Assembly (NCBI GenBank): GCA_050951545.1
Contig: JBMNJG010000003.1
Location: 128,001 to 192,000, forward strand
Length of the DNA stretch: 64,000 bases
Source: Limnochordia bacterium
Lineage (GTDB): Bacteria > Bacillota > Limnochordia > DTU080
Reading direction: 5' to 3'
Shown here: positions 352 through 22,362 of the stretch, piece by piece
How the letters are laid out: each line of letters opens with the position of its first letter
How positions within the stretch are numbered: the first letter of the stretch is position 1
Notes under the pieces: model-generated
Database searches by the model: none
Seen by the model: only the letters and a program-made list of their open reading frames with translations
Told to the model about the DNA's origin: nothing
Translations under genes and position numbers: made by a program

Positions 352-2049
352 CTATGGCTGCGTTGGTGGCTTGATGTCTAGATAGCGCGGAGGGGCCTCT
401 AGCTGCAGTTTTTGCAGGAAATCCTTTTGAACTTCACCGGGTTTGGTGGTTTGCCAGACCTCCCCACAATCCGTTGAATGGATGCCTACCTGCATGGTGT
501 CAAAAGCCTTTTTCATCTGATGCCATGTGGCCTCCGTAGCATTTTCCGCCACGCGAATCAGCAGCAGTGAAAGCCAACATAGTAGAGCGTGAGCGCGGAT
601 GCGTTCGTCCTTGCGATGGTAGACAGGACGGATGTCTACTACATGCTTCAGGTCGTCAAACACGCGCTCAATGTCCCAGAGCTGCTTGTAGCCCAGGACG
701 ATGTCCTCAGCACTCAGCTTGTCGTCTGAGCTACTGACCAGGTATTTGCCGTCGAGCTGAGTCTCCTTGCGAATCTTCGCCTTGTCCAGGCTAAGCACGC
801 CTGCTCGATTCTGCTGCAGATAGCGCCCGAAGGTGGGGTGCGAACGCAACTCGCACGCTCCCTTGGTGTGGGCTTCGCCCTCGAGCTGTTCTAGGGCCTC
901 CAGGCAGCGTTCGATCTCGGCAACGATGTCGTCACGCTTCAAACGATCACGTTTGGCCTCCGTAGGATTACGTACGACTACGAAGCGTCTTTGGGCTGCA
1001 CCACCCTCATCAATCAGTACTTCCTTGATTTCGAGACCGTTGGCCAGTTTCTTGTACCTGCCGCGGCGGCTGAGGGCTTCCGCTGGCTCGGCGCCTGGTC
1101 CTAGGCACATTTTCTCACCAATGATGTAGTGACCGCCCGCGCCCTGTAAGACGCGCTGGTTGGCGGCCGAGTTGAACCCTGAGTCCATAACCATCACGAC
1201 CCGGCCCAGCTGCCAATCGTTCAGGTCCTTCTTTACTGCCTCGACTAGGTTCTGATCACAGCTATTGCCGGGGAAGGACCAGCATCTCACGGGTATGCCG
1301 CTACGAGTGATGGCGAAGGCGATGGTAACCTGCGCTAGGTCGTGCCGTTTCTGCTTGTTTCGACCGCGCTTACGCAGCCCTTCCCAAGTCGGCTCGCCAT
1401 CGTCGCCACAAATGTCGTCATCCGTATGCTCGATTTCGAAGTAGACGTTGGTCGTATCGACGAAGATCAGATCAACCTCGAGGTTGAAGAGGTTGACCAC
1501 CGAGAAGAACACGTCATGCTGAATCTTTTCATCGGCCTCGAGAAGGAAATCCATCGCCCGGTAAAGCTGATGAACCTCAACTTCATCAAGCCCTGAGATA
1601 TGTACCTTTTTGGCTACCCAGTGCTCGAGTCCAAGCTTACTGCATGGAGCCAACGCCCGATTCGCCACCATGGCGAAGATAAGCCGTTCGATCGGCGTAG
1701 CAGACTCTCGCTTACGCAGAAGAGTCTCGAGCACCTTTCGGATGCCCAAACGTTGCCACAGACCGTCTAGCAGCCATGTTCCGCCCAACTCCCTAGATCC
1801 CTTGAACTCAAAGGGCTGGACGTTGCCCGCTACTACCTGCGCTTCAGCGGCTTCATCCGGCTCCAGATATCTGGAGATGCTATTGACCAGACGTCGCAGA
1901 GCTTCCGTATCCAGGGCATCGGCCGGGCCAAGGTTATGAAGCACCTTGGTCTTTGAAACTCCCTTCACAGGGTCTCTATAGTTATGACAGAGTTGCACAT
2001 ACCGAAAGGTCTTGTGACTCTTTTTGACGGATACGGTTCGCATATACAT
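352..2049 (-). CDS. IS1634-family DDE transposase
   Basis: Start taken at MYMRT (2049); catalytic-like motifs FVDTTNVYFE, MVMDSGF, WDIERVF; IRPVYHRKDERIRAH is typical of IS1634. Confidence 0.93.
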   Translation of the reverse strand: MYMRTVSVKKSHKTFRYVQLCHNYRDPVKGVSKTKVLHNLGPADALDTEALRRLVNSISRYLEPDEAAEAQVVAGNVQPFEFKGSRELGGTWLLDGLWQRLGIRKVLETLLRKRESATPIERLIFAMVANRALAPCSKLGLEHWVAKKVHISGLDEVEVHQLYRAMDFLLEADEKIQHDVFFSVVNLFNLEVDLIFVDTTNVYFEIEHTDDDICGDDGEPTWEGLRKRGRNKQKRHDLAQVTIAFAITRSGIPVRCWSFPGNSCDQNLVEAVKKDLNDWQLGRVVMVMDSGFNSAANQRVLQGAGGHYIIGEKMCLGPGAEPAEALSRRGRYKKLANGLEIKEVLIDEGGAAQRRFVVVRNPTEAKRDRLKRDDIVAEIERCLEALEQLEGEAHTKGACELRSHPTFGRYLQQNRAGVLSLDKAKIRKETQLDGKYLVSSSDDKLSAEDIVLGYKQLWDIERVFDDLKHVVDIRPVYHRKDERIRAHALLCWLSLLLIRVAENATEATWHQMKKAFDTMQVGIHSTDCGEVWQTTKPGEVQKDFLQKLQLEAPPRYLDIKPPTQP

Positions 2050-2058
2050 TGTAACTAT

Positions 2059-2067
2059 ATTATACCA
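2059..2067 (-). promoter_or_regulatory. Extended -10 promoter (TGnTATAAT) for the transposase
   Basis: TGGTATAAT lies 9 nt before the ATG at 2049; no Shine-Dalgarno in between. Confidence 0.55.
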
Positions 2068-2272
2068 CAGGTAAGCGATTAAGGGAAGGCCGAAAACAGA
2101 TAGGGTTGTAACTACGCGTTTTGCGGTTGTGGCCACACGTTCGCGCCCAAAAAACGCTATACTAGGCCATTTCGCATTTCGGTTGTGCCCCTCAACTGTT
2201 CAACGCCAGACCAGAGAAGATGAGTCAAGCCGGATCTCCGCACGGCCAGTGATCGTACCAGCTTGTGATATG

Positions 2273-2815: not shown

Positions 2816-2844
2816 ATTGTATCCAAGATTGCCGTCACTGTCAA
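2816..2844 (-). promoter_or_regulatory. SigA promoter for tRNA-Val
   Basis: TTGACA-17 bp-TACAAT. Confidence 0.8.
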
Positions 2845-2859
2845 TCGTCTCTTCGCGAA

Positions 2860-3110
2860 GGGATACACACACACGTGAAATCGCGGCGAACACCCGTTCC
2901 TGATCATGCTGCCTCCCGCCTCTCCCAGAAATCGTCCCACTGTTCACCGTGGGAGTATGCTGCAACGTTTAGCATCTGCTGTGCCCTAAGTTGGCTCCAA
3001 CGCGATTGCTTGTGGCGCCTAACAACAACCTGCTTACAGGCGCTTTCTACGCATCCGCTGCCAATGGGGTAGCCAGCGGCCTCCAGCCTCGGATAAAGGG
3101 TTCATCTCCT
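2860..3110 (-). pseudogene. ISKra4/ISLre2-type (UPF0236-like) transposase C-terminal remnant with possible right end
   Basis: Frame 3095-2904 reads YPRLEAAGYPIGSGCVESACKQVVVRRHKQSRWSQLRAQQMLNVAAYSHGEQWDDFWERREAA*; GxPIGSGxVESACK and WS..A..ML..W..FW are ISKra4-type motifs; no in-frame start. Confidence 0.8.
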
Positions 3111-3256
3111 CCTGCGAAAGTGCCTCTTGAGTGCGTGTCAACCCACGAGTAAATCTTACCGAAGACCGTATGGCTCACTCACCAAAGATCTAACCCAACG
3201 CTTGCCTAAGTCAGAGCAGGCATAGGCTCACGACTACTGCTACGGACTCTCTGGGA

Positions 3257-3284
3257 TGCATCGGTGGCCTCGGCCACCGATGCA
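3257..3284. repeat. Perfect 13-bp inverted repeat (hairpin/palindrome)
   Basis: TGCATCGGTGGCC-tc-GGCCACCGATGCA; no U-tract on either side. Confidence 0.85.
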
Positions 3285-3451
3285 CTTGGTGGGCCTTGGC
3301 CGATCAGTTGTTCAATCCTGTGGTGCATAGCCAGTGGGTTTGGCTCACGTTGTCGCTTCTGCACGATCGCCAGCGGCGGGTGGACGCGCACTAACATTGG
3401 CTGCACGGCTGATGTGAGCACTAATGAAACGGACGAGGTGACCCAGGGTGA

Positions 3452-4513
3452 TTACTCGTCTTGCGTTTCGTCAGATTGGCTGGCGGTTCCCCAGCCGCGC
3501 TCATCTATTCTTTGCTGGTATTCACCGCATCTACACTCGAGATAGTTGATGAGCTTCCGGTTGAAGTCCTGACCGCGCCGGAATGGCAGCCGCCTGTGAA
3601 TCTTGCGCTTGATGATCTTGCAGGACAGCTCGTGAGCCTGAATCACGATCAGCTTGATCTTCTTCTTAGCGCAGATCTGCTGTTTGGTCTGGTCACGGCA
3701 TTGCTGCTTATGGACCTGCTCAGCCGAATTCCGCTCCGTGACGCGGTAGTGTTGCGCCCCATTGAACTCCATGGCCGTATTGTGCAAGTAATAGAAGAGA
3801 TCGACCTCCAGACGCTTGCCAGTTGCTGGGTTCCTCATGAAACCTGGGCGCATTCCGTCGTCGAAGTCAAGGCAATCGACAAGCGCCAAGAAGATAGCCT
3901 GCATGAGAGCCTCTCCGAGGTGCGTAGCGCGGTGGAGCTCATCCTGCACGTCTAGTATTTCTTTGACATTTCGCTTATCAACCGGGTTGTGGAGAGTGAA
4001 GCGAATCGGTGCCCGCTTGTGCGCCTGCTCCATCTCCAGCCAACCATGCTTGGCCAACTGACGAGCCGCGTGTTTGATGGTCTGGGGGCTCAGACTCATC
4101 CGGCCGGCTAACTCAGCGTATGTGAACTGCCTTTTGCGAGGTGGGTCCGTAGGTTTGGACAGCAGTAGGGCATAAACCAATTTGGCCTGTGCATGGATTT
4201 CAGTAGCCATGACTAACTCCACAGGTACGGAGACCCTATCCGGGGATGGCTTCTGTGCCGCGGTCTGGCTAGGTCCCCGCCTAGCCGGTGGAGCAAACCA
4301 GCCCTCGGTGGTTAACTTGGCTGTCGCCCTGCGAACGGTAGGCCGGGACATACCCGTGCGCCGCCCCAGGCGGCTGGGCGAGAAAAGGAAACTTTCCTCC
4401 AGCTGATCATCCATCGTTAAGGCCATCCAAACGATCTTCTCGCTGGCTTTTAGCTCGCGAGTCAGTAGCAGTGAGAGCGGCACGTTCACCTCATCTACAT
4501 AGAGAGAGTACAA
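3452..4513 (-). CDS. Hypothetical protein with two winged-HTH-like repeats and a C-terminal DUF559/Vsr-like PD-(D/E)XK nuclease domain
   Basis: Two similar modules (VNVPLSLLL..ASEKIVW..LGRRTGMSRPTVRRATAKLTTEGW and VSVPVELVM..AQAKLVY..LAGRMSLSPQTIKHAARQLAKHGW); C-terminus GE..RPGFMRNPATGKRLEVDLF..AMEFNGAQHY..QQCRDQTKQQIC..IKLIVI; TTG start after GAGGTGAGG. Confidence 0.75.
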   Translation of the reverse strand: MYSLYVDEVNVPLSLLLTRELKASEKIVWMALTMDDQLEESFLFSPSRLGRRTGMSRPTVRRATAKLTTEGWFAPPARRGPSQTAAQKPSPDRVSVPVELVMATEIHAQAKLVYALLLSKPTDPPRKRQFTYAELAGRMSLSPQTIKHAARQLAKHGWLEMEQAHKRAPIRFTLHNPVDKRNVKEILDVQDELHRATHLGEALMQAIFLALVDCLDFDDGMRPGFMRNPATGKRLEVDLFYYLHNTAMEFNGAQHYRVTERNSAEQVHKQQCRDQTKQQICAKKKIKLIVIQAHELSCKIIKRKIHRRLPFRRGQDFNRKLINYLECRCGEYQQRIDERGWGTASQSDETQDE

Positions 4514-4561
4514 GGGCCTCACCTCACATAACGACCATGTGTTCGATTGATTCAATGCTGA

Positions 4562-4586
4562 ATTCTATGTGCGGCTCCAGAATCCT
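4562..4586 (-). promoter_or_regulatory. SigH-like promoter for the HTH-nuclease gene
   Basis: AGGA-17 bp-GAAT, matching the spacing of the B. subtilis SigH consensus. Confidence 0.5.
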
Positions 4587-4677
4587 TCCACAGACAATAG
4601 TTCTTCGCTGACTGCGCGTGCATTGCCGACTAAGACCCGGTGGCCACTGGGAGTCGACAGCATTTCCCCCTCGGATC

Positions 4678-5669
4678 ATCGGCTGAGTGGGAAAAGGCTG
4701 TCGCCACCGTCCGGTTATGTACTGCCCAGTAGCCCCAGAAGGGCCGCCGAGACGAGAAAACGCGCTCTTGGCCGGGGAAATGAGCCCTTCGGGCGGTCAA
4801 GATGAGCAAAAAAGGCTTCGCGAAGACCGCATCGCTGCACTTTTACCACGTACATTGGGCCCGGGGGTTAATGAGGCGGCTCTTTTGCCATCGCGGTCGG
4901 ATCCTTGGCCCCCACTTCACGTACCAATCCGGGTAAATCCCGTCCGACTACCGAGCCAGTCTCGCGAGCGTGTGCATGGTGCATGGTATTCGTCCAGCCT
5001 TTTCGAAACACACCGACCGGGCTAACACTGAAGGGTCGGTCCACAGAGGGACCCGAGTGAGCCCGCCGTGATCGCGCACTGGGGAGCTGACCCCATCGGC
5101 TGAGTGGCAAAAGGCTATCGACACTGCCGGGTTATGTACCGCCCAGTAGCTCCACAAGGGCCACCAGGGCGGGAAAGCGCGCTCTTTTGGGGGGAAAAGA
5201 GCCCTTCAGCCGGTCAAAATGAGCAAAAAGGGCTTCGCGAAGACCGCATCGCTGCACTTTTACCACGTACATTGGGCCCGGGGGCTAATGAGGCGGCTCT
5301 TTTGCCATCACGGTCGGATCCTTGGTCGCTACTCGCATGCCAATGCGGACAAATCCCGTTCGGCGAGCGAGTCTCGCAAGCGTGTCCATGCGCCCATTCT
5401 TTTCGAAACACACCGACCGGGCTAACACTGAAGGGTCGGTCCGCAGAGGGACCCGAGTGAGCCCGCCGTGATCGCGCACTGGGGAGCTGACCCCAATCGG
5501 CTGAGTGGCAAAAGGTATCGACACTGTTCGGTTATGTACTGCCCAGTAGCCCCAGAAGCGAAATCAGGGCGGGAAAGCGTGCTCTTGGGCGGCGAAATGA
5601 GCCTGTCGGGCGATCAAAATGAGCCTGTCGGGCGATTCGCGAAGACCGCATCGCTAGGTTGTTACCACC
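4678..5669. repeat. Tandem array of ~400-bp imperfect repeats (2 full units and 1 partial)
   Basis: ATCGGCTGAGTGG recurs at 4678, 5095 and 5496 (periods 417 and 401); GGTTATGTAC at 4713, 5130, 5530; long near-identical blocks between units. Confidence 0.95.
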
Positions 5670-5835
5670 AACCCAAGCGAACGCAGAGAGATTACCGCAG
5701 TTTTTTGCGTGGCCCCTTCGCGAAGAGCCAAAGGCTGCCGATGGTAACAACATGTTCCGGTCTGCTTCGTCGTGATCCGGAGCCATTCGGGGTACCGTAA
5801 TGGTAGAGCAACGAACTTTTTTCCGGAGGTCAACC

Positions 5836-6681
5836 ATGCGTAGCCTATGGAAAGGCGCAGTCAGTTTTGGCTTAGTGAACATCCCCGTACGCATGTATGC
5901 CGCTACTGAAGATAAGGATTTGAGCTTCAGTCAGCTACATCGAGAGTGTCATACCCCTATTCGCTACGCCAAGTTCTGTCCCACCTGCGAACGGGAAGTG
6001 CAGCAAGAGGAGATCATTCGAGGTTATGCATACGACAACCGGGGCTTCGTCGTCCTGGAAGAAGACGATTTCGCCTCTCTTCCTGTGCCAACGCTTAAGA
6101 CAGTGGAAATCCTAGATTTCATTGATCTGGTGGAGATCGACCCCATCTACTACCAACGAAGCTACTACCTCGAGCCCCTGGAAGGCGCGACAAAACCCTA
6201 TTCGCTTCTGCTGCGAGCCATGCAGGAGAGTAGTAAGGTAGCTCTCGGCAAGATCACCATCCGGACACGAGAATCCCTGTGCTGTCTGCGCGTCTACCGT
6301 GATCTCCTGTCTGTAGCTACCATGCACTACCCCGACGAAGTGCGTTCTATTGAACAACTGCAGCCTCTACAGACCCACCCCGAGGTAGCCGCGGGGGAGC
6401 TGCGCATGGCTCTGCAGCTCATCGAAAGCCTGACGACCCCGTTCGAACCGAGCAAGTATACAGATGGATATCGTAGCGCTCTGCTGGAGCTGATCCGGAC
6501 CAAAGCCGCTGGCCACCAGATACACGAGGCGCCGACGCCGACGCCGTTGGCGGGTGATGTCATGGATCTGATGGCGGCTCTTGAGGCAAGCCTTAGCGCG
6601 GTAGAAAAGGAAAAGGTAATGTCCAAGACCGAGGTGGCTAGCTCCGCCAAGTTGGCTACCGGTCGACGACGCAAGGGCTAG
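5836..6681 (+). CDS. ku: Ku protein (NHEJ)
   Basis: MRSLWKGAVSFGLVNIPV, IDPIYYQRSYYL, DLMAALEASL, basic tail; GGAGG RBS. Confidence 0.96.
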   Translation: MRSLWKGAVSFGLVNIPVRMYAATEDKDLSFSQLHRECHTPIRYAKFCPTCEREVQQEEIIRGYAYDNRGFVVLEEDDFASLPVPTLKTVEILDFIDLVEIDPIYYQRSYYLEPLEGATKPYSLLLRAMQESSKVALGKITIRTRESLCCLRVYRDLLSVATMHYPDEVRSIEQLQPLQTHPEVAAGELRMALQLIESLTTPFEPSKYTDGYRSALLELIRTKAAGHQIHEAPTPTPLAGDVMDLMAALEASLSAVEKEKVMSKTEVASSAKLATGRRRKG

Positions 6682-6689
6682 AGCAAGCC

Positions 6690-7676
6690 ATGCCCCTCCC
6701 CCCGTTTATCCCTCCGATGCTCGCTACACCAGGTCCTCTGACTTACTCCAAGGAGTCTTTGTACGAGCCAAAGTGGGACGGCCTGCGTTGTCTAGCTTTC
6801 AAGGATAAGAGGCTTCGCCTCATGAGCCGTAACGGTCGGGACATGACCGCTCACTTCCCGGACCTGGCGGATCTGGCACATTGCCTTCACGGTGAACCCT
6901 GGGTCTTAGACGGAGAGCTTGTCATCTTTGACGACACCGGAAAAGCAAGCTTTGATCTGGTACGCGATCGCAATCTGACAGCTACCCCTACACGCATTAC
7001 TCATCTGGCGCAGCGCCATCCCGCAGTTCTTATTGTCTTCGATCTTCTCTACCACCGCGGGATTAGCCTGATGGACAAGATGCTGCGTGCCCGTCGCAGC
7101 TTGCTTGAGCAGCACCTAGAGCCGGGGCAACACGTGGCACTTTCACCTGCAGTGGTTGGCGCGGGGCCTGGTTTTCACCAAACAGTGGTACACCACGGAT
7201 GTGAGGGGACGATGATTAAGAGGTTAGAGAGTCCGTACGCGCCTGGATCGCGAAGCCCTTATTGGATCAAGGTCCGCAATGTCAAGGAAACCGACTGTGT
7301 GATCGGCGGCTTCGTACAAAGAGGCCCTCAGCAGCTGGCAAGTCTGCTACTCGGACAGCATCTGCTCCCTGCGAAGACACTGCACTACGTTGGCCGCGTG
7401 GGCGCGGGTTTCTCCGAGAACCAGAGCCAAACCCTTCTGAATTTTCTTTACCGCATCCTGACCCATGCGCCACCCTTCACGGCGATTGCCCCAAATCTAG
7501 CTCGCGGAGCCTCCTGGGTTCGACCCATAGTGGTCTGCCGTGTCGAGTACCTAACATGGACCGCCAAAGGCCTACTGCGCCATCCGGTCTTTCGCGGCAT
7601 CCGTACGGATAAGCCACCTCTTGAGTGCCTATTGGCGGCCGATCATCCGTCCAGCACAGGAGCCTCTTCCCTATGA
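6690..7676 (+). CDS. ligD: ATP-dependent DNA ligase, LigD ligase domain
   Basis: Motifs EPKWDGLR, LDGEL, FDLLY, EGTMIK, YVGRVGAGF, LRHPVFRG. Confidence 0.93.
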   Translation: MPLPPFIPPMLATPGPLTYSKESLYEPKWDGLRCLAFKDKRLRLMSRNGRDMTAHFPDLADLAHCLHGEPWVLDGELVIFDDTGKASFDLVRDRNLTATPTRITHLAQRHPAVLIVFDLLYHRGISLMDKMLRARRSLLEQHLEPGQHVALSPAVVGAGPGFHQTVVHHGCEGTMIKRLESPYAPGSRSPYWIKVRNVKETDCVIGGFVQRGPQQLASLLLGQHLLPAKTLHYVGRVGAGFSENQSQTLLNFLYRILTHAPPFTAIAPNLARGASWVRPIVVCRVEYLTWTAKGLLRHPVFRGIRTDKPPLECLLAADHPSSTGASSL

Positions 7677-8575
7677 CCAGGTACCCCGTAAAAGTAGGTG
7701 AGCGGCATCTTGAGCTATCCAATCTTGACAAGGTACTGTGGCCAGACAAAGGCATCACCAAAGGTGATCTCATTCACTACTACGCCTCAGTGGCCGAAAG
7801 ACTTCTACCTCACCTCAGAAGACGCCCCCTTACCCTCACCCGCTATCCCGATGGGATCACGGGTGACATGTTCTACCAGAAGGACACACCCCTGCATGCC
7901 CCTGACTGGTTGCCGACATACGCCGTTGCTTCCTCAATCCCCGGGCGCATGGTGCGTTACCTCTTGGCCGAGGAAGCCGCAGCTCTTGTCTGGTTAGCCA
8001 ACCAAGCAACCATTGAGATTCACCCATGGATGTCAACCGTAGAGCATCCCGCCTATCCTGACTACGCAGTCATTGACCTCGACCCTGCCGAGGGTGCCAC
8101 GTGGGCTGATGTGGTAGAGATCGCCAGATTGGTGCGAGTTCTGCTTGAGAGGCTGGACCTTGTTGGATTCCCCAAGCTTTCGGGGGCTACAGGCATCCAC
8201 ATCTATGTCCCGCTAGCCGCTCGCTATAGCTTTGCGCAGACCAGCCAGTTTGTCGGTTTCCTAGGGAGACTCTTGGTCAAAGCCTATCCGGAAAAGGCGA
8301 CCAATGAACGTCTTGTCCAGTGTCGCAACGGGAGAGTGTATATCGATCACCTTCAGAATCTGCCTGGAAAGACCATCGTGGCACCATACGTGCCCAGACC
8401 CGTCGCTGGCGCCCCTGTCTCGGTCCCCGTCTCCTGGGCGGAGCTCGGCGAAGTGACACCTGAGCAGTTCAGTGTAGATCAACCCCAGCTTATCCTGAAA
8501 CGCCCCAAAGATCATGACGCCATGTATAGTCTCCAGCAAAGCCTCGATGCTGTACTTCCTTTGCTGAATCTGTGA
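7673..8575 (+). CDS. LigD polymerase/primase domain protein
   Basis: LSNLDKVLWP, RYPDG, FYQKD, DLDP, GIHIYVPL, YIDHLQN; ATGA overlap with the ligase gene. Confidence 0.93.
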   Translation: MTRYPVKVGERHLELSNLDKVLWPDKGITKGDLIHYYASVAERLLPHLRRRPLTLTRYPDGITGDMFYQKDTPLHAPDWLPTYAVASSIPGRMVRYLLAEEAAALVWLANQATIEIHPWMSTVEHPAYPDYAVIDLDPAEGATWADVVEIARLVRVLLERLDLVGFPKLSGATGIHIYVPLAARYSFAQTSQFVGFLGRLLVKAYPEKATNERLVQCRNGRVYIDHLQNLPGKTIVAPYVPRPVAGAPVSVPVSWAELGEVTPEQFSVDQPQLILKRPKDHDAMYSLQQSLDAVLPLLNL

Positions 8576-8629
8576 CTGATCTGCTTTGCCAGCAGGAGAT
8601 CCACCGTCGCTTGACCTATTCTTCCTCAG

Positions 8630-8686
8630 GTACGCATGTCGACGGCCAACCACACGCGGAAATCGAGGCAACTGTGGCAGGTGTTC
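8630..8686 (+). repeat. 57-bp dispersed structured repeat, copy 1
   Basis: 50/57 identical to 11222-11278; also matches the reverse complement of 26285-26341. Confidence 0.9.
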
Positions 8687-11096: not shown

Positions 11097-11221
11097 GGCG
11101 ATCTCCTTACCCTCTGGGTATTGGCTCTCACTTCCACGTCTAGCATCATAGCCCTGCCATACGCTCATGGCGATCATTGATAGAGAAGAAGCTGCGTAAG
11201 TGTAGACATGTGCTCCGTTGA

Positions 11222-11278
11222 GTACGCGTGTCGGCGGCCAACCACACGCGGAAGTCGAGGCGGCCGCGGCAGGTGTTC
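11222..11278 (+). repeat. 57-bp dispersed structured repeat, copy 2
   Basis: GTACGCGTGTCGGCGGCCAACCACACGCGGAAGTCGAGGCGGCCGCGGCAGGTGTTC. Confidence 0.9.
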
Positions 11279-21282: not shown

Positions 21283-22362
21283 GTGCACACCATGCAACAA
21301 CCAGTGTCGGGCTCGGGGTGGTGCGAACGTCTTGAGCTTGTACTGGAAGGCGGCGGGAAGTTGCCTGGTGCTATTCGGATAGTAGATATCCGCGACAAAG
21401 TGCTTGCCTGCACTGCCGACCGCGAGGATGACAAGGCCTTGGTACGCGGGCAGCTACAGGTCTTCGTATACTACAACATTGACGGCTGCGACCGGGTGCA
21501 AGGTCAGGGTGCGGAGATCCCCTGGCATTTTGAAGTGCCTATCCCTCCAGCCGTAGAAGGAGCGCTAGAGGCACGCGTAGTGGAGGTAAGACATGATCAT
21601 TCCTATGATCCCAAAAGCGAACAGCTACGCCACACTATGCATGTGGCCTTTGAAGTCTGGAATATCGACGCCCAACCCGCCGAGCAACCCGTCTGTCATT
21701 CAGCGTGCGATGGGGCAGCCTCGAGTGATGCCATAAAACCTATTGGAGCGCCTTTGTTTGAGCCAGAGCCGGCTGCTAATGCACTGGAACTGGAGCTATC
21801 CGAAACCAGTGATTCGCCAGATTCTGAGGCTGTGCTGACTGACCCTGACAGTGAGGACATTATCGAACCTCACCCAAGTGACAGTGACGAGCAATCAGTT
21901 CCTGCGGGGAGCACAACCCGCGATGATCCGTCTGAGATGCCTTGCCTGGATCACGAGTTATCCTTGGAAACCTCGGATTCATCGGTCACGCCTGAGCAGC
22001 ACGAACTGCAGCCAACGGATGTCGTCATAGCGGACACCGTCATGAGCGAGCGTCTTGACGACCTGGAAAACCAACTGCACCAGATGAGAAGCGAGTTCAT
22101 CGCCTTGCGCAAGGAGCTAGAGAGTCTGCGGGAGTGGGCCAAGGTAGAGACCATGGTTGAGACTAGTGTGGAGTGTGCAAAAGAGCTAGCGCCTGTGGTT
22201 GAAGAGCTAGCGCCTGTGGTTGAAGAGCTAGCGCCTGTGGTTGAAGAGCTAACGCCTGTGGTTGAAGAGCTAACGCCTGTGGTTGAAGAGCTAACGCCCC
22301 AACCTGCGAAACCGAAACCAGAGCGTGAGGTTCTTGTCTGGCGCCCCTTCCCGAGGATCTAG
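21283..22362 (+). CDS. Hypothetical protein: SPOCS-like N-terminus, acidic disordered linker, coiled coil and heptapeptide repeats (candidate coat morphogenetic protein)
   Basis: AGGAGG RBS; DKALVRGQLQVFVYY resembles SPOCS/DUF3794; EL(A/T)PVVE x5; conserved-looking end VLVWRPFPRI. Confidence 0.55.
   Translation: MHTMQQPVSGSGWCERLELVLEGGGKLPGAIRIVDIRDKVLACTADREDDKALVRGQLQVFVYYNIDGCDRVQGQGAEIPWHFEVPIPPAVEGALEARVVEVRHDHSYDPKSEQLRHTMHVAFEVWNIDAQPAEQPVCHSACDGAASSDAIKPIGAPLFEPEPAANALELELSETSDSPDSEAVLTDPDSEDIIEPHPSDSDEQSVPAGSTTRDDPSEMPCLDHELSLETSDSSVTPEQHELQPTDVVIADTVMSERLDDLENQLHQMRSEFIALRKELESLREWAKVETMVETSVECAKELAPVVEELAPVVEELAPVVEELTPVVEELTPVVEELTPQPAKPKPEREVLVWRPFPRI
22181..22298 (+). repeat. 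21-bp coding tandem repeat, 5.6 copies
   Basis: AAGAGCTARCGCCTGTGGTTG units; the first three carry GCG (Ala), the later ones ACG (Thr). Confidence 0.97.

Follow-up and report, generated by a model that had tools for sequence, protein, structure and literature searches.

What is the relationship between a predicted nuclease gene and the tandem array of ~400-bp repeats that lies beside it in a bacterial chromosome? The question arises from a 64,000-nt stretch of a Limnochordia bacterium genome (contig JBMNJG010000003.1, positions 128,001 to 192,000; the window). An earlier note on its sequence described a minus-strand open reading frame (ORF) of ~350 aa, with two winged-helix-turn-helix (wHTH) modules and a DUF559/Vsr-like C terminus, together with 2.4 tandem repeats, a SigH-like promoter and a 13-bp palindrome. 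The note proposed a selfish or mobile module whose protein recognizes motifs in the repeats and cuts or mobilizes them, or whose repeats are transcribed into partner RNAs.

The nuclease gene and its repeats lie within a multicopy insertion

The unit first flagged is part of a larger insertion of 2,856 bp (2861..5716), flanked by a 9-bp target-site duplication. The duplication occupies 2852..2860 on the tRNA side (plus strand, TTCGCGAAG; register ambiguous by 1 bp) and 5717..5725 on the Ku side (plus strand), and accounts for the copies of CTTCGCGAAG at both element edges. The target was a host σA promoter of the tRNA-Val cluster (2816..2844, minus strand), which lies outside the element and has its −35 box starting 16 nt beyond the right end. 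Two genomes of the same genus, G402 and G403, lack the element and have the empty site. An assembly artifact was ruled out, as both junctions were bridged by contigs in 4/4 DNA runs from four studies. In run X9, a joint between 2789 and 5823 may represent an empty site in a relative, but with only 88% likeness it was left out of the evidence.

The element is present ~15 times in the host genome, G000, as family A. These copies, the duplication and the empty site in relatives support the proposal of a mobile module. The gene itself has 28 copies in G000, which are dispersed and have unrelated flanks. Gene depth was 11-21x flank depth in four DNA runs, one possibly from the source sample, although depth is not copy number. 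Family-A-like sequence makes up 1.7% of the genome, and it adjoins strong promoters. The palindrome in the right arm (3257-3269/3272-3284, 2-nt loop) is perfect, as described, and is deleted or absent in most other element copies.

The element is a non-autonomous ISKra4 derivative

Insertion sequences of the ISKra4 group (p-MULT 4 DDE transposases) generate 8-9-bp target duplications and insert 15-17 bp upstream of σA −35 boxes in either orientation, according to the available parts of the source (PMC3942029). A circular transposition intermediate is a further feature of the group; in four contig sets, which drop rare forms, the listed joints include no end-to-end one. The element shares with this group and its derivatives the GGG-type terminal repeats, the 9-bp duplication, a position 16 bp from σA −35 boxes in both orientations, a transposase C terminus adjoining the right end and the carriage of a passenger gene (PMC3942029, same parts). 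Its right end (2861..2888, minus strand) is a variant of GGGTGCAC, the ISKra4-type sequence that forms this end in other copies. The left end (5695..5716, minus strand), which starts with GGGGCCACGCAAAAAA, is a weaker match and pairs imperfectly with the right end as its inverted counterpart. RCACCC/RGACCC ends within 100 nt of the transposase occur at 49/63 related ISKra4-like loci, and family A is alike in this respect.

The transposase C terminus is a relic with the GSGCVESACK motif (2904..3113, minus strand; NF033572, E 1.3e-11). It lies 45 bp inside the right end, contains one internal stop and was found in 11 family-A copies. Since only this 65-aa relic remains and the rest of the transposase gene is deleted, the element is a non-autonomous ISKra4 derivative rather than an autonomous member. 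It also departs from the group in its weakly complementary ends and in its passenger, a nuclease accompanied by an array of 400-bp repeats that varies in unit number, which the available parts of PMC3942029 do not mention. The full-length protein nearest to the relic, P0190, is 69% identical to it and scores above the ISKra4 cut-off, as does P0191. In G000 (assembly 93.9% complete), no hit exceeded this cut-off and no intact ISKra4 transposase was found, and there was no near-identical parent of the relic among 44 protein candidates. A search of five relatives with P0190, run without a positive control, was empty.

Across the nine two-ended copies, the 9-bp duplication was perfect in five, had one mismatch (8/9) in one and was absent from three. 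A σA −35 box lay exactly 16 nt away from 9 of 29 ends (6 right and 3 left, in both orientations) against a background of 2.0%, with at most two ends at any other offset from 8 to 25; the −35 match criterion was fixed after some ends had been seen. Most likely, the ~15 copies were spread by an ISKra4 transposase, lost or unassembled, rather than by the nuclease. As the footprints are those of ISKra4, the mobilization of these copies by the nuclease, which the earlier note had entertained, is unlikely. Two other helpers were rejected: ISLre2, which has three intact copies and the same 16-bp targeting but unrelated ends, and an IS256-type element, for which the matches are fragments.

The passenger gene encodes a predicted tandem-wHTH nuclease

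The ORF (3452..4513, minus strand) encodes 353 aa and starts at a TTG codon preceded by a GAGGTG ribosome site. Both predicted wHTH modules (residues ~5-75 and 92-177; 3983..4501, minus strand) were recovered by self-comparison and in the structural model. They form an internal duplication, with 28% identity over 68 aa (E 8e-9), and Pfam HTH_36 matches two stretches of the protein. In the model, the pair is arranged as in Rep_3 initiators, with a VIA Z of 8.2 and an rmsd of 4.3 over 165 residues to the Pi initiator (2nra); a weak match to RepE was also seen. A PDB sequence search returned generic HTH proteins only, and the families listed for the protein did not include Rep_3, NUMOD or Y1.

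The assignment of the C terminus (residues 196-310; 3584..3928, minus strand) to the DUF559/Vsr-like nucleases is supported by the model fold and by conserved residues. The modeled domain has the Vsr/I-Bth0305I fold: its VIA Z is a middling 8.0 against 3r3p (93 residues at rmsd 2.8), 7.9 against Vsr (1cw0) and 7.6 against 3hrl. Foldseek gave no match at E≤0.001. E201, D238, E249, H255, D274 and K277 are conserved in 94-105 of 105 homologs; their correspondence to EDxHD enzymes was set by motif order, not by a printed superposition. A pN/pS of 0.16 among 13 in-frame copies indicates purifying selection on the gene.

The EDxHD homing endonuclease I-Bth0305I (3r3p) likewise joins N-terminal duplicated DNA-binding modules to a C-terminal Vsr-fold nuclease and has matching acidic and histidine residues (E201, D238, H255 and D274 here). 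It acts as a dimer on a pseudo-palindromic target (available parts of PMC3239194). In contrast, our protein has a wHTH pair instead of NUMOD (NUMOD2) motifs. Its gene is chromosomal, multicopy and preceded by a LexA box, and it does not reside in an intron, an intein or a fixed host gene. Its putative sites are found in the DNA upstream of the gene itself, not in an empty allele.

The gene is preceded by a LexA/SOS box of the Cheo type (4532..4545, minus strand), with one mismatch to GAAC-N4-GTTC. Boxes with at most one mismatch precede 28/28 gene copies in G000, and perfect boxes were found at 7/48 homologs compared to 2/1303 windows. Three Cheo-type boxes are listed upstream of the host lexA, and none was found within 300 bp upstream of recA. 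The SigH consensus is AGGAT-N16-GAAT. The SigH-like promoter motif that had been described (4562..4586, minus strand) has this form and recurs at 6/48 homologs compared to 5/1816 control windows.

The repeat units are recombinant mosaics

The array (4677..5668, minus strand) contains three ~165-bp modules (4687-4849, 5104-5266 and 5505-5668), each bracketed by imperfect inverted repeats, and two ~245-bp spacers. As reported, it comprises 2.4 tandem units (4677-5093, 5094-5494 and 5495-5668), which are spaced 417 and 400 bp apart and 80-95% alike. Overall, the unit is ~405 bp and each element copy has ~1-6 of them. TTACCAC, one of the motifs proposed for recognition, is by itself unspecific (68 within element-like sequence and 270 outside), whereas GGTTATGTAC (45 within, 6 outside) and CTTCGCGAAG (40 within, 2 outside) are specific.

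The repeat units (47) are recombinant mosaics on a fine scale. The four-gamete fraction was ~0.9 beyond 60 bp, whereas clonal simulations that included heavy homoplasy reached at most 0.57. Units are 86-89% alike, while the gene has a synonymous divergence of 5% and the relic arm a divergence of 3%. Recombination intervals (37) are distributed uniformly along the unit, without a focus at the dyads described below. RecA alone could recombine ~60 similar units.

The supposed linkage of repeats to the gene held in part. Long upstream direct repeats were present at 17/62 homolog loci compared to 2/55 controls, and four separate families in G000 each have their own array. Since only 17 of the 62 loci have long repeats, the tandem array is optional.

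Paired dyads precede some distant homologs of the gene

A proximal dyad (4650..4708), whose two inverted half-sites are 16 nt apart, is a predicted binding and cleavage site. Each repeat unit has a second, weaker dyad (5251..5296, from a partly circular profile scan), whose equivalent in unit 1 is at ~4834-4879. A four-arm pattern of two ~55-60-bp dyads was detected in 12/48 distant homolog upstream regions compared to 0/73 controls; the other 36 did not reach it at the scan threshold. The homolog dyads have gene-specific half-sites and occupy a fixed place next to the promoter, 60-280 bp before the start. The two dyads (~57 bp) are ~140 bp apart and have long spacers. In the unbiased four-arm scan, the window's own dyads scored 48 and 50, below control maxima of 57-58, and 14 sister copies were not above random windows, except two at 56 and 58. 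No part of the unit is better conserved than the inner half-site (98% over 47 units). Half-sites differ between paralogs of the same genome, which makes it unlikely that one host factor reads them all. The pair of dyad sites, rather than the array, appears to be the more basic partner of the gene, and the nuclease probably binds, and would cut, such paired sites within its own ~400-bp repeats.

Homologs were found in 24/401 genomes of the same phylum, and the unnamed family comprises 149 clusters at E≤1e-30. We found no description of this nuclease family in a literature search in which subscription journals were thinly covered. On viral contigs, 390 stretches match the nuclease domain only (residues ~183-328 in the best 80 of 390), with no full-length homolog among these best 80. 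No neighbor gene recurred specifically around 80 homolog loci, and no other genome shared the right end above chance. Some genomes without an ISKra4 footprint have up to 10-11 paralogs. This spread is unexplained, since cleavage of its own promoter region would give a nuclease no clear route to new loci.

Discussion

The best explanation, to which we give an even chance of being correct, is that the locus is an ISKra4-derived non-autonomous transposon whose passenger, an SOS-inducible wHTH/Vsr-like nuclease, acts at its own upstream half-sites. An ISKra4 transposase supplied in trans likely copied the element to new sites. The passenger nuclease, predicted to be SOS-inducible, would bind the paired upstream half-sites and nick or cut there. 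By analogy, the protein would act as a dimer, with one half-site per monomer read by two wHTH domains, and the nuclease domains would probably meet in the dyad spacer. After DNA damage, the breaks would be repaired from any other chromosomal unit. Such repair would multiply and shuffle units and gene-convert the neighboring gene, and this amplification would keep the cassette alive after loss of the transposase.

A bolder version, which we consider rather doubtful, is that the core represents a new class of self-propagating DNA. A dyad pair and an SOS-induced, initiator-like nuclease that cuts its own sites would copy themselves to new places via break-induced recombination or end-joining, without a transposase, recombinase or RNA guide. 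Each paralog would evolve its own half-site, so that the paralogs would form a natural library of orthogonal, protein-guided nucleases, and the ISKra4 ends would have been hijacked here. RAYTs are HUH (Y1) transposases associated with short REP palindromes, and RAYT/REPIN systems similarly tie a nuclease gene to its own repeats. The TnpB accessory nucleases of IS200/IS605 also ride a transposon, as maintenance factors (available parts of PMC11870625). Unlike either, our protein has no HUH (Y1) or RuvC domain and no evidence of a guide RNA, and its repeats, tandem units of 90-440 bp, move together with each copy of the gene.

An alternative that we regard as unlikely keeps the same ISKra4 shell and treats the dyads as autoregulatory operators only, acting by looped repression. 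After SOS induction the nuclease would attack other targets (foreign DNA, the excised donor site or damaged DNA), with the arrays as by-products of unequal recombination. The fixed position of the dyads against the promoter fits this proposal, as do the tight control implied by the LexA and SigH-like motifs, the lack of a recombination hot spot at the dyads and the absence of arrays from 45/62 homolog loci. However, two ~57-bp dyads with long spacers seem a better fit to a dimeric nuclease target, and operators would leave the separate array of each of the four G000 families unexplained.

It is less probable still that the protein is an initiator-like nickase, which would load onto the dyads, as onto an origin, through its Rep_3-like wHTH pair, with local or circular replication giving rise to arrays and to copies that insert by illegitimate recombination. 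Like Pi of R6K (2nra) and RepE (1rep), it appears to combine a tandem wHTH arrangement with ~20-bp, iteron-sized repeated half-sites beside the gene. Family C has ragged ends at its own repeat motif and no target duplication, and p-MULT circles of TnGBS replicate (available parts of PMC3942029). However, the Z of 8.2 to Pi, over the N-terminal half, is within the range of common wHTH arrangements. Unlike Rep_3 initiators, the protein has a fused nuclease domain, its putative sites are inverted dyads rather than direct iterons, and its gene is chromosomal. Plasmid and phage collections gave no match, and no end-to-end junction was present among the joints listed in four contig sets, although contigs drop rare forms.

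We think it improbable that the nuclease is a new kind of transposase that recognizes the ends and makes the 9-bp duplications. It is the sole intact gene, it is under purifying selection, no intact ISKra4 transposase was found in G000, and its paralogs are multicopy where the uncontrolled P0190 search finds nothing. However, the ends, the relic, the duplication and the 16-bp offset are all ISKra4 traits. A GGG end with a duplication was found at 3/73 other homolog loci, where 2.6 are expected by chance, and at 0/13 family B-D copies; the 50 matches listed for the model include no RNase H/DDE fold.

Transcription of the repeats into structured RNAs, whether guides or the partners proposed earlier, is very improbable. 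On the gene strand, one 172-nt module has a better fold than its shuffled versions (z −2.6; 0.4 on the opposite strand), but most of this score comes from the terminal inverted repeat, which a DNA site explains equally well. Whole units show no gain in folding over shuffles (z −1.8 to +1.8, 12 shuffles each), and the three window modules have no two-sided compensatory change. The Rfam matches were all either tRNA-related or weak and due to chance, with no family for the repeats, and the units are mosaic on a fine scale.

Returning to the ISKra4-derived transposon with its nuclease passenger, the transposition footprints belong to ISKra4, and the role of the nuclease at the dyads is a separate question. 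If the dyads are its targets, an unnamed family carries its recognition sites beside each gene, which makes specificity directly testable. The family would then be a source of compact nucleases with different long sites. It would also point to a new way in which cassettes lacking a transposase last and multiply in chromosomes, with long bacterial tandem arrays built by their own nuclease.

The element is a multicopy insertion

The element occupies 2861-5716 of the window, has TTCGCGAAG on both sides, and is absent from the tRNA-Val to Ku interval of two genomes of the same genus, G402 and G403. An assembly artefact is rejected, since both junctions are spanned by contigs in 4/4 DNA runs, drawn from four studies. 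The source genome (3.64 Mb, 16 contigs, 93.9% complete) contains 15 full-length gene copies of this family, family A (97-100% protein identity, two frameshifted), besides fragments. Family A has fixed ends. At 46-55% identity there are thirteen more gene copies, which make up families B (4), C (7), and D (2). Families A-D form one clade with support of 1.0 (FastTree), and each has its own tandem repeat: ~405 bp upstream in A, ~273 bp downstream in B, ~94 bp downstream in C, and ~440 bp upstream and degenerate in D.

Arrays without the gene lie at C2:185165-185895, C10:60283-61402, C14:7971-8669, C6:95666-96000, and C5:366189-366529, some interrupted by other insertion sequences. The left end adjoins an NHEJ operon (Ku, ATP-dependent ligase, and LigD primase-polymerase; 5836-8575, plus strand), by which the host can end-join breaks. 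This adjacency is an insertion accident, as the same order occurs without the element in G402 and G403. An ordinary IS with a 594-aa DDE transposase gene (Pfam DDE_Tnp_1; 352-2136, minus strand) lies beside the tRNA cluster.

The shell very likely derives from ISKra4

The locus has two layers, a shell and a nuclease core. The shell is very likely ISKra4-derived: a derivative of this known family rather than an autonomous member. The ISKra4 transposase model NF033572 has a match in the right arm (2964-3113) and one at the equivalent place in each of ten other copies. The nearest full-length relatives of the transposase relic (2904-3113) are ISKra4 transposases, of which P0190 is 69% identical and, at 245 bits, clears the cut-off of 205. 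Among 80 related metagenome loci, chosen by relatedness and not each by ISKra4 HMM score, 63 had sufficient DNA 3′ of the transposase gene; RCACCC or RGACCC occurs within 100 nt after the gene in 49 of the 63 (~10% expected by simple arithmetic). The inverted repeats of these loci start with GGGTG, as does the family-A right end. In nine two-ended family-A copies, a 9-bp duplication is perfect in five, matches at 8 of 9 positions in one, and is lacking in three. A -35 box starts exactly 16 nt outside 9/29 family-A ends (six right, three left), compared to at most two ends for any other offset and 2.0% of random sites. The ISKra4 group is reported to make 8-9-bp duplications, to show the 16-bp offset, with promoters on both sides, and to include four elements with passenger genes (PMC3942029).

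Decayed ISKra4-type ends also occur in some B, C, and D copies. Target duplications were found at 0/13 family B-D copies and, at homologue loci in other genomes, at 3/73 (2.6 expected). The parent ISKra4 was found neither in the source genome, where NF033572 gave nothing above cut-off, nor among the nearest-protein matches. These findings read most simply as an earlier burst in which an ISKra4 transposase, since lost or missing from the assembly, acted in trans.

Two family-A copies contain a nested or tandem ISKra4 mini-element (C7:457659-458150 and C16:2043-2332), in which 16 bp separate a short right end from a second left end, with the transposase relic coming next. The genome also carries three intact ISLre2 copies, 99.5% alike (C16:149380-151074, C2:219040-220734, and C9:24088-25782), each ending ~16 bp from a -35-like box. 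A ~61-bp periodic repeat with CRISPR-like spacing lies near one of them (C16 ~152950-153250, in the L001 flank).

The core encodes tandem wHTH modules and a predicted Vsr-like nuclease

Every item in the earlier note is present in the sequence, including the ORF, the array, and the duplicated modules. The gene runs from a TTG start at 4513 to 3452 (minus strand), is preceded by a GAGGTG ribosome site, and encodes 353 aa. HTH_36 and similar wHTH families match its two N-terminal modules, which also align to one another (28% over 68 aa, E 8e-9). In an AlphaFold2 model built on 105 homologues (pLDDT 92.7), residues 196-310 match the I-Bth0305I catalytic domain (Z 8.0, rmsd 2.8, 93 residues), Vsr (Z 7.9), and ngo0050 (Z 7.6), and residues 4-177 match the Pi initiator (Z 8.2, rmsd 4.3, 165 residues). 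The proposed double-wHTH and Vsr-like architecture holds in the model, at middling Z values; Foldseek returned no match at E<=0.001.

D238, E249, H255, D274, and K277 are conserved in 102-105 of the 105 homologues and E201 in 94. Their order is that of E170, D196, H213, and D222 in I-Bth0305I, an enzyme that sits on its pseudo-palindromic target as a dimer (PMC3239194). The core resembles a free-standing EDxHD nuclease and differs in its binding module and locus. TnpB offers an analogy for such a core (PMC11870625). Our literature search found no description of this tandem-wHTH/Vsr-like nuclease family.

Homologue cluster representatives number 149 at E<=1e-30 and 348 at 1e-10. The nuclease occurs in 24/401 sampled genomes of the phylum and 15/95 of the class, with 10-11 copies each in G404 and G409; named records are mainly Bacillota MAGs (Limnochordia, Symbiobacteriaceae, and Clostridia). 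Homologue loci showed no recurring neighbor gene and, elsewhere, no common right end. The nuclease core is older and wider in distribution than the ISKra4 shell. The MAG behind homologue loci L154 and L165 bears the title Mycobacterium leprae, probably a mislabel, since both proteins fall among Bacillota homologues. Matches to just the nuclease domain extend to many viral contigs, giant-virus MAGs among them (L025-L104, the best 80 of 390).

Some homologue genes follow paired dyads and promoter motifs

The array (4677-5668) comprises three modules and two spacers. Long direct repeats lie <=1.5 kb upstream at 17/62 homologue loci, a count from which short-read assemblies may conceal more, versus 2/55 farther upstream; the suggested linkage of repeats to the gene is partial. 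An upstream long-spacer inverted repeat occurs at 13/42 homologue loci versus 2/253 control windows. Mapping its arms revealed two dyads, each of two inverted half-sites offset 33-46 bp, that recur ~140 bp apart and end just before the promoter. An unbiased four-arm scan (>=58) detected 12/48 homologue loci and 0/73 controls. Half-sites differ between paralogues within one genome, with a weak trend toward greater resemblance at higher N-terminal identity (rho 0.26, nominal p 0.012, from non-independent pairs).

Since the window falls below threshold in the four-arm scan, its dyads rest on homology and profile: a putative proximal site at 4650-4708 and a weaker second dyad in each repeat unit. 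Of the 45 dyads that the family-A half-site profile picks out across the genome, 36 lie in family-A arrays, a partly circular result. A 74-bp intergenic repeat (8613-8686 and 11205-11278, 80% alike), unrelated to the element, has similar sequences at C2:185100 and close to the C13 copy of family C. At 22181-22298, a 21-bp unit is repeated in tandem (5.6 copies, 98% alike).

A LexA/SOS-type box, GAAC-N4-GTTC, precedes 28/28 gene copies in the source genome at <=1 mismatch and, in perfect form, 7/48 homologues versus 2/1303 windows. Host lexA has three upstream; recA has none within 300 bp upstream. The SigH-like motif was borne out: it precedes 6/48 homologues versus 5/1816 windows and, in the source genome, 3/28 copies in strict form, including the window copy, and 20/28 in looser form.

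Mosaic arrays and possible self-cleavage

Family-A gene copies are 98.2% identical and under selection (pN/pS 0.16, pS 5.0%), and the relic arm is 96.9% identical among copies; right-arm differences are deletions ending in short shared sequences. The 47 full repeat units are just 86-89% alike, even at equal array position. They have a mosaic make-up: r2 is 0.19 at distances below 20 bp but 0.03 past 80 bp, the four-gamete fraction reaches ~0.9 (<=0.57 when clonal descent with heavy homoplasy is simulated), and at least 37 recombination intervals are evenly distributed along the unit. Gene copies are likewise mosaic.

We lean slightly toward self-cleavage by the nuclease at its dyads. The nuclease would be made after DNA damage, bind half-sites as a dimer, by likeness to I-Bth0305I, and nick or cut within the dyad spacer; repair from other units would multiply and shuffle units and homogenize the gene. 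The main weaknesses are that recombination is spread evenly along the unit, that dyads are weak in the window copy, and that spread in genomes without an ISKra4 footprint is left unexplained.

That the dyads serve only as operators is unlikely, and initiator-like amplification by the protein is more doubtful still. It is improbable that the nuclease is itself the transposase, as the relic, ends, 9-bp duplication, and 16-nt offset of family A are ISKra4-type. The earlier idea of partner RNAs from the repeats is very improbable: one module folds on the gene strand (z -2.6), mainly via its terminal inverted repeat, but whole units have no folding signal.

An ISKra4 shell and a self-cleaving core, taken together, have about even chances. 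The nuclease cassette itself is real and belongs to no named family; it has probable cognate sites and here rides a dead ISKra4.
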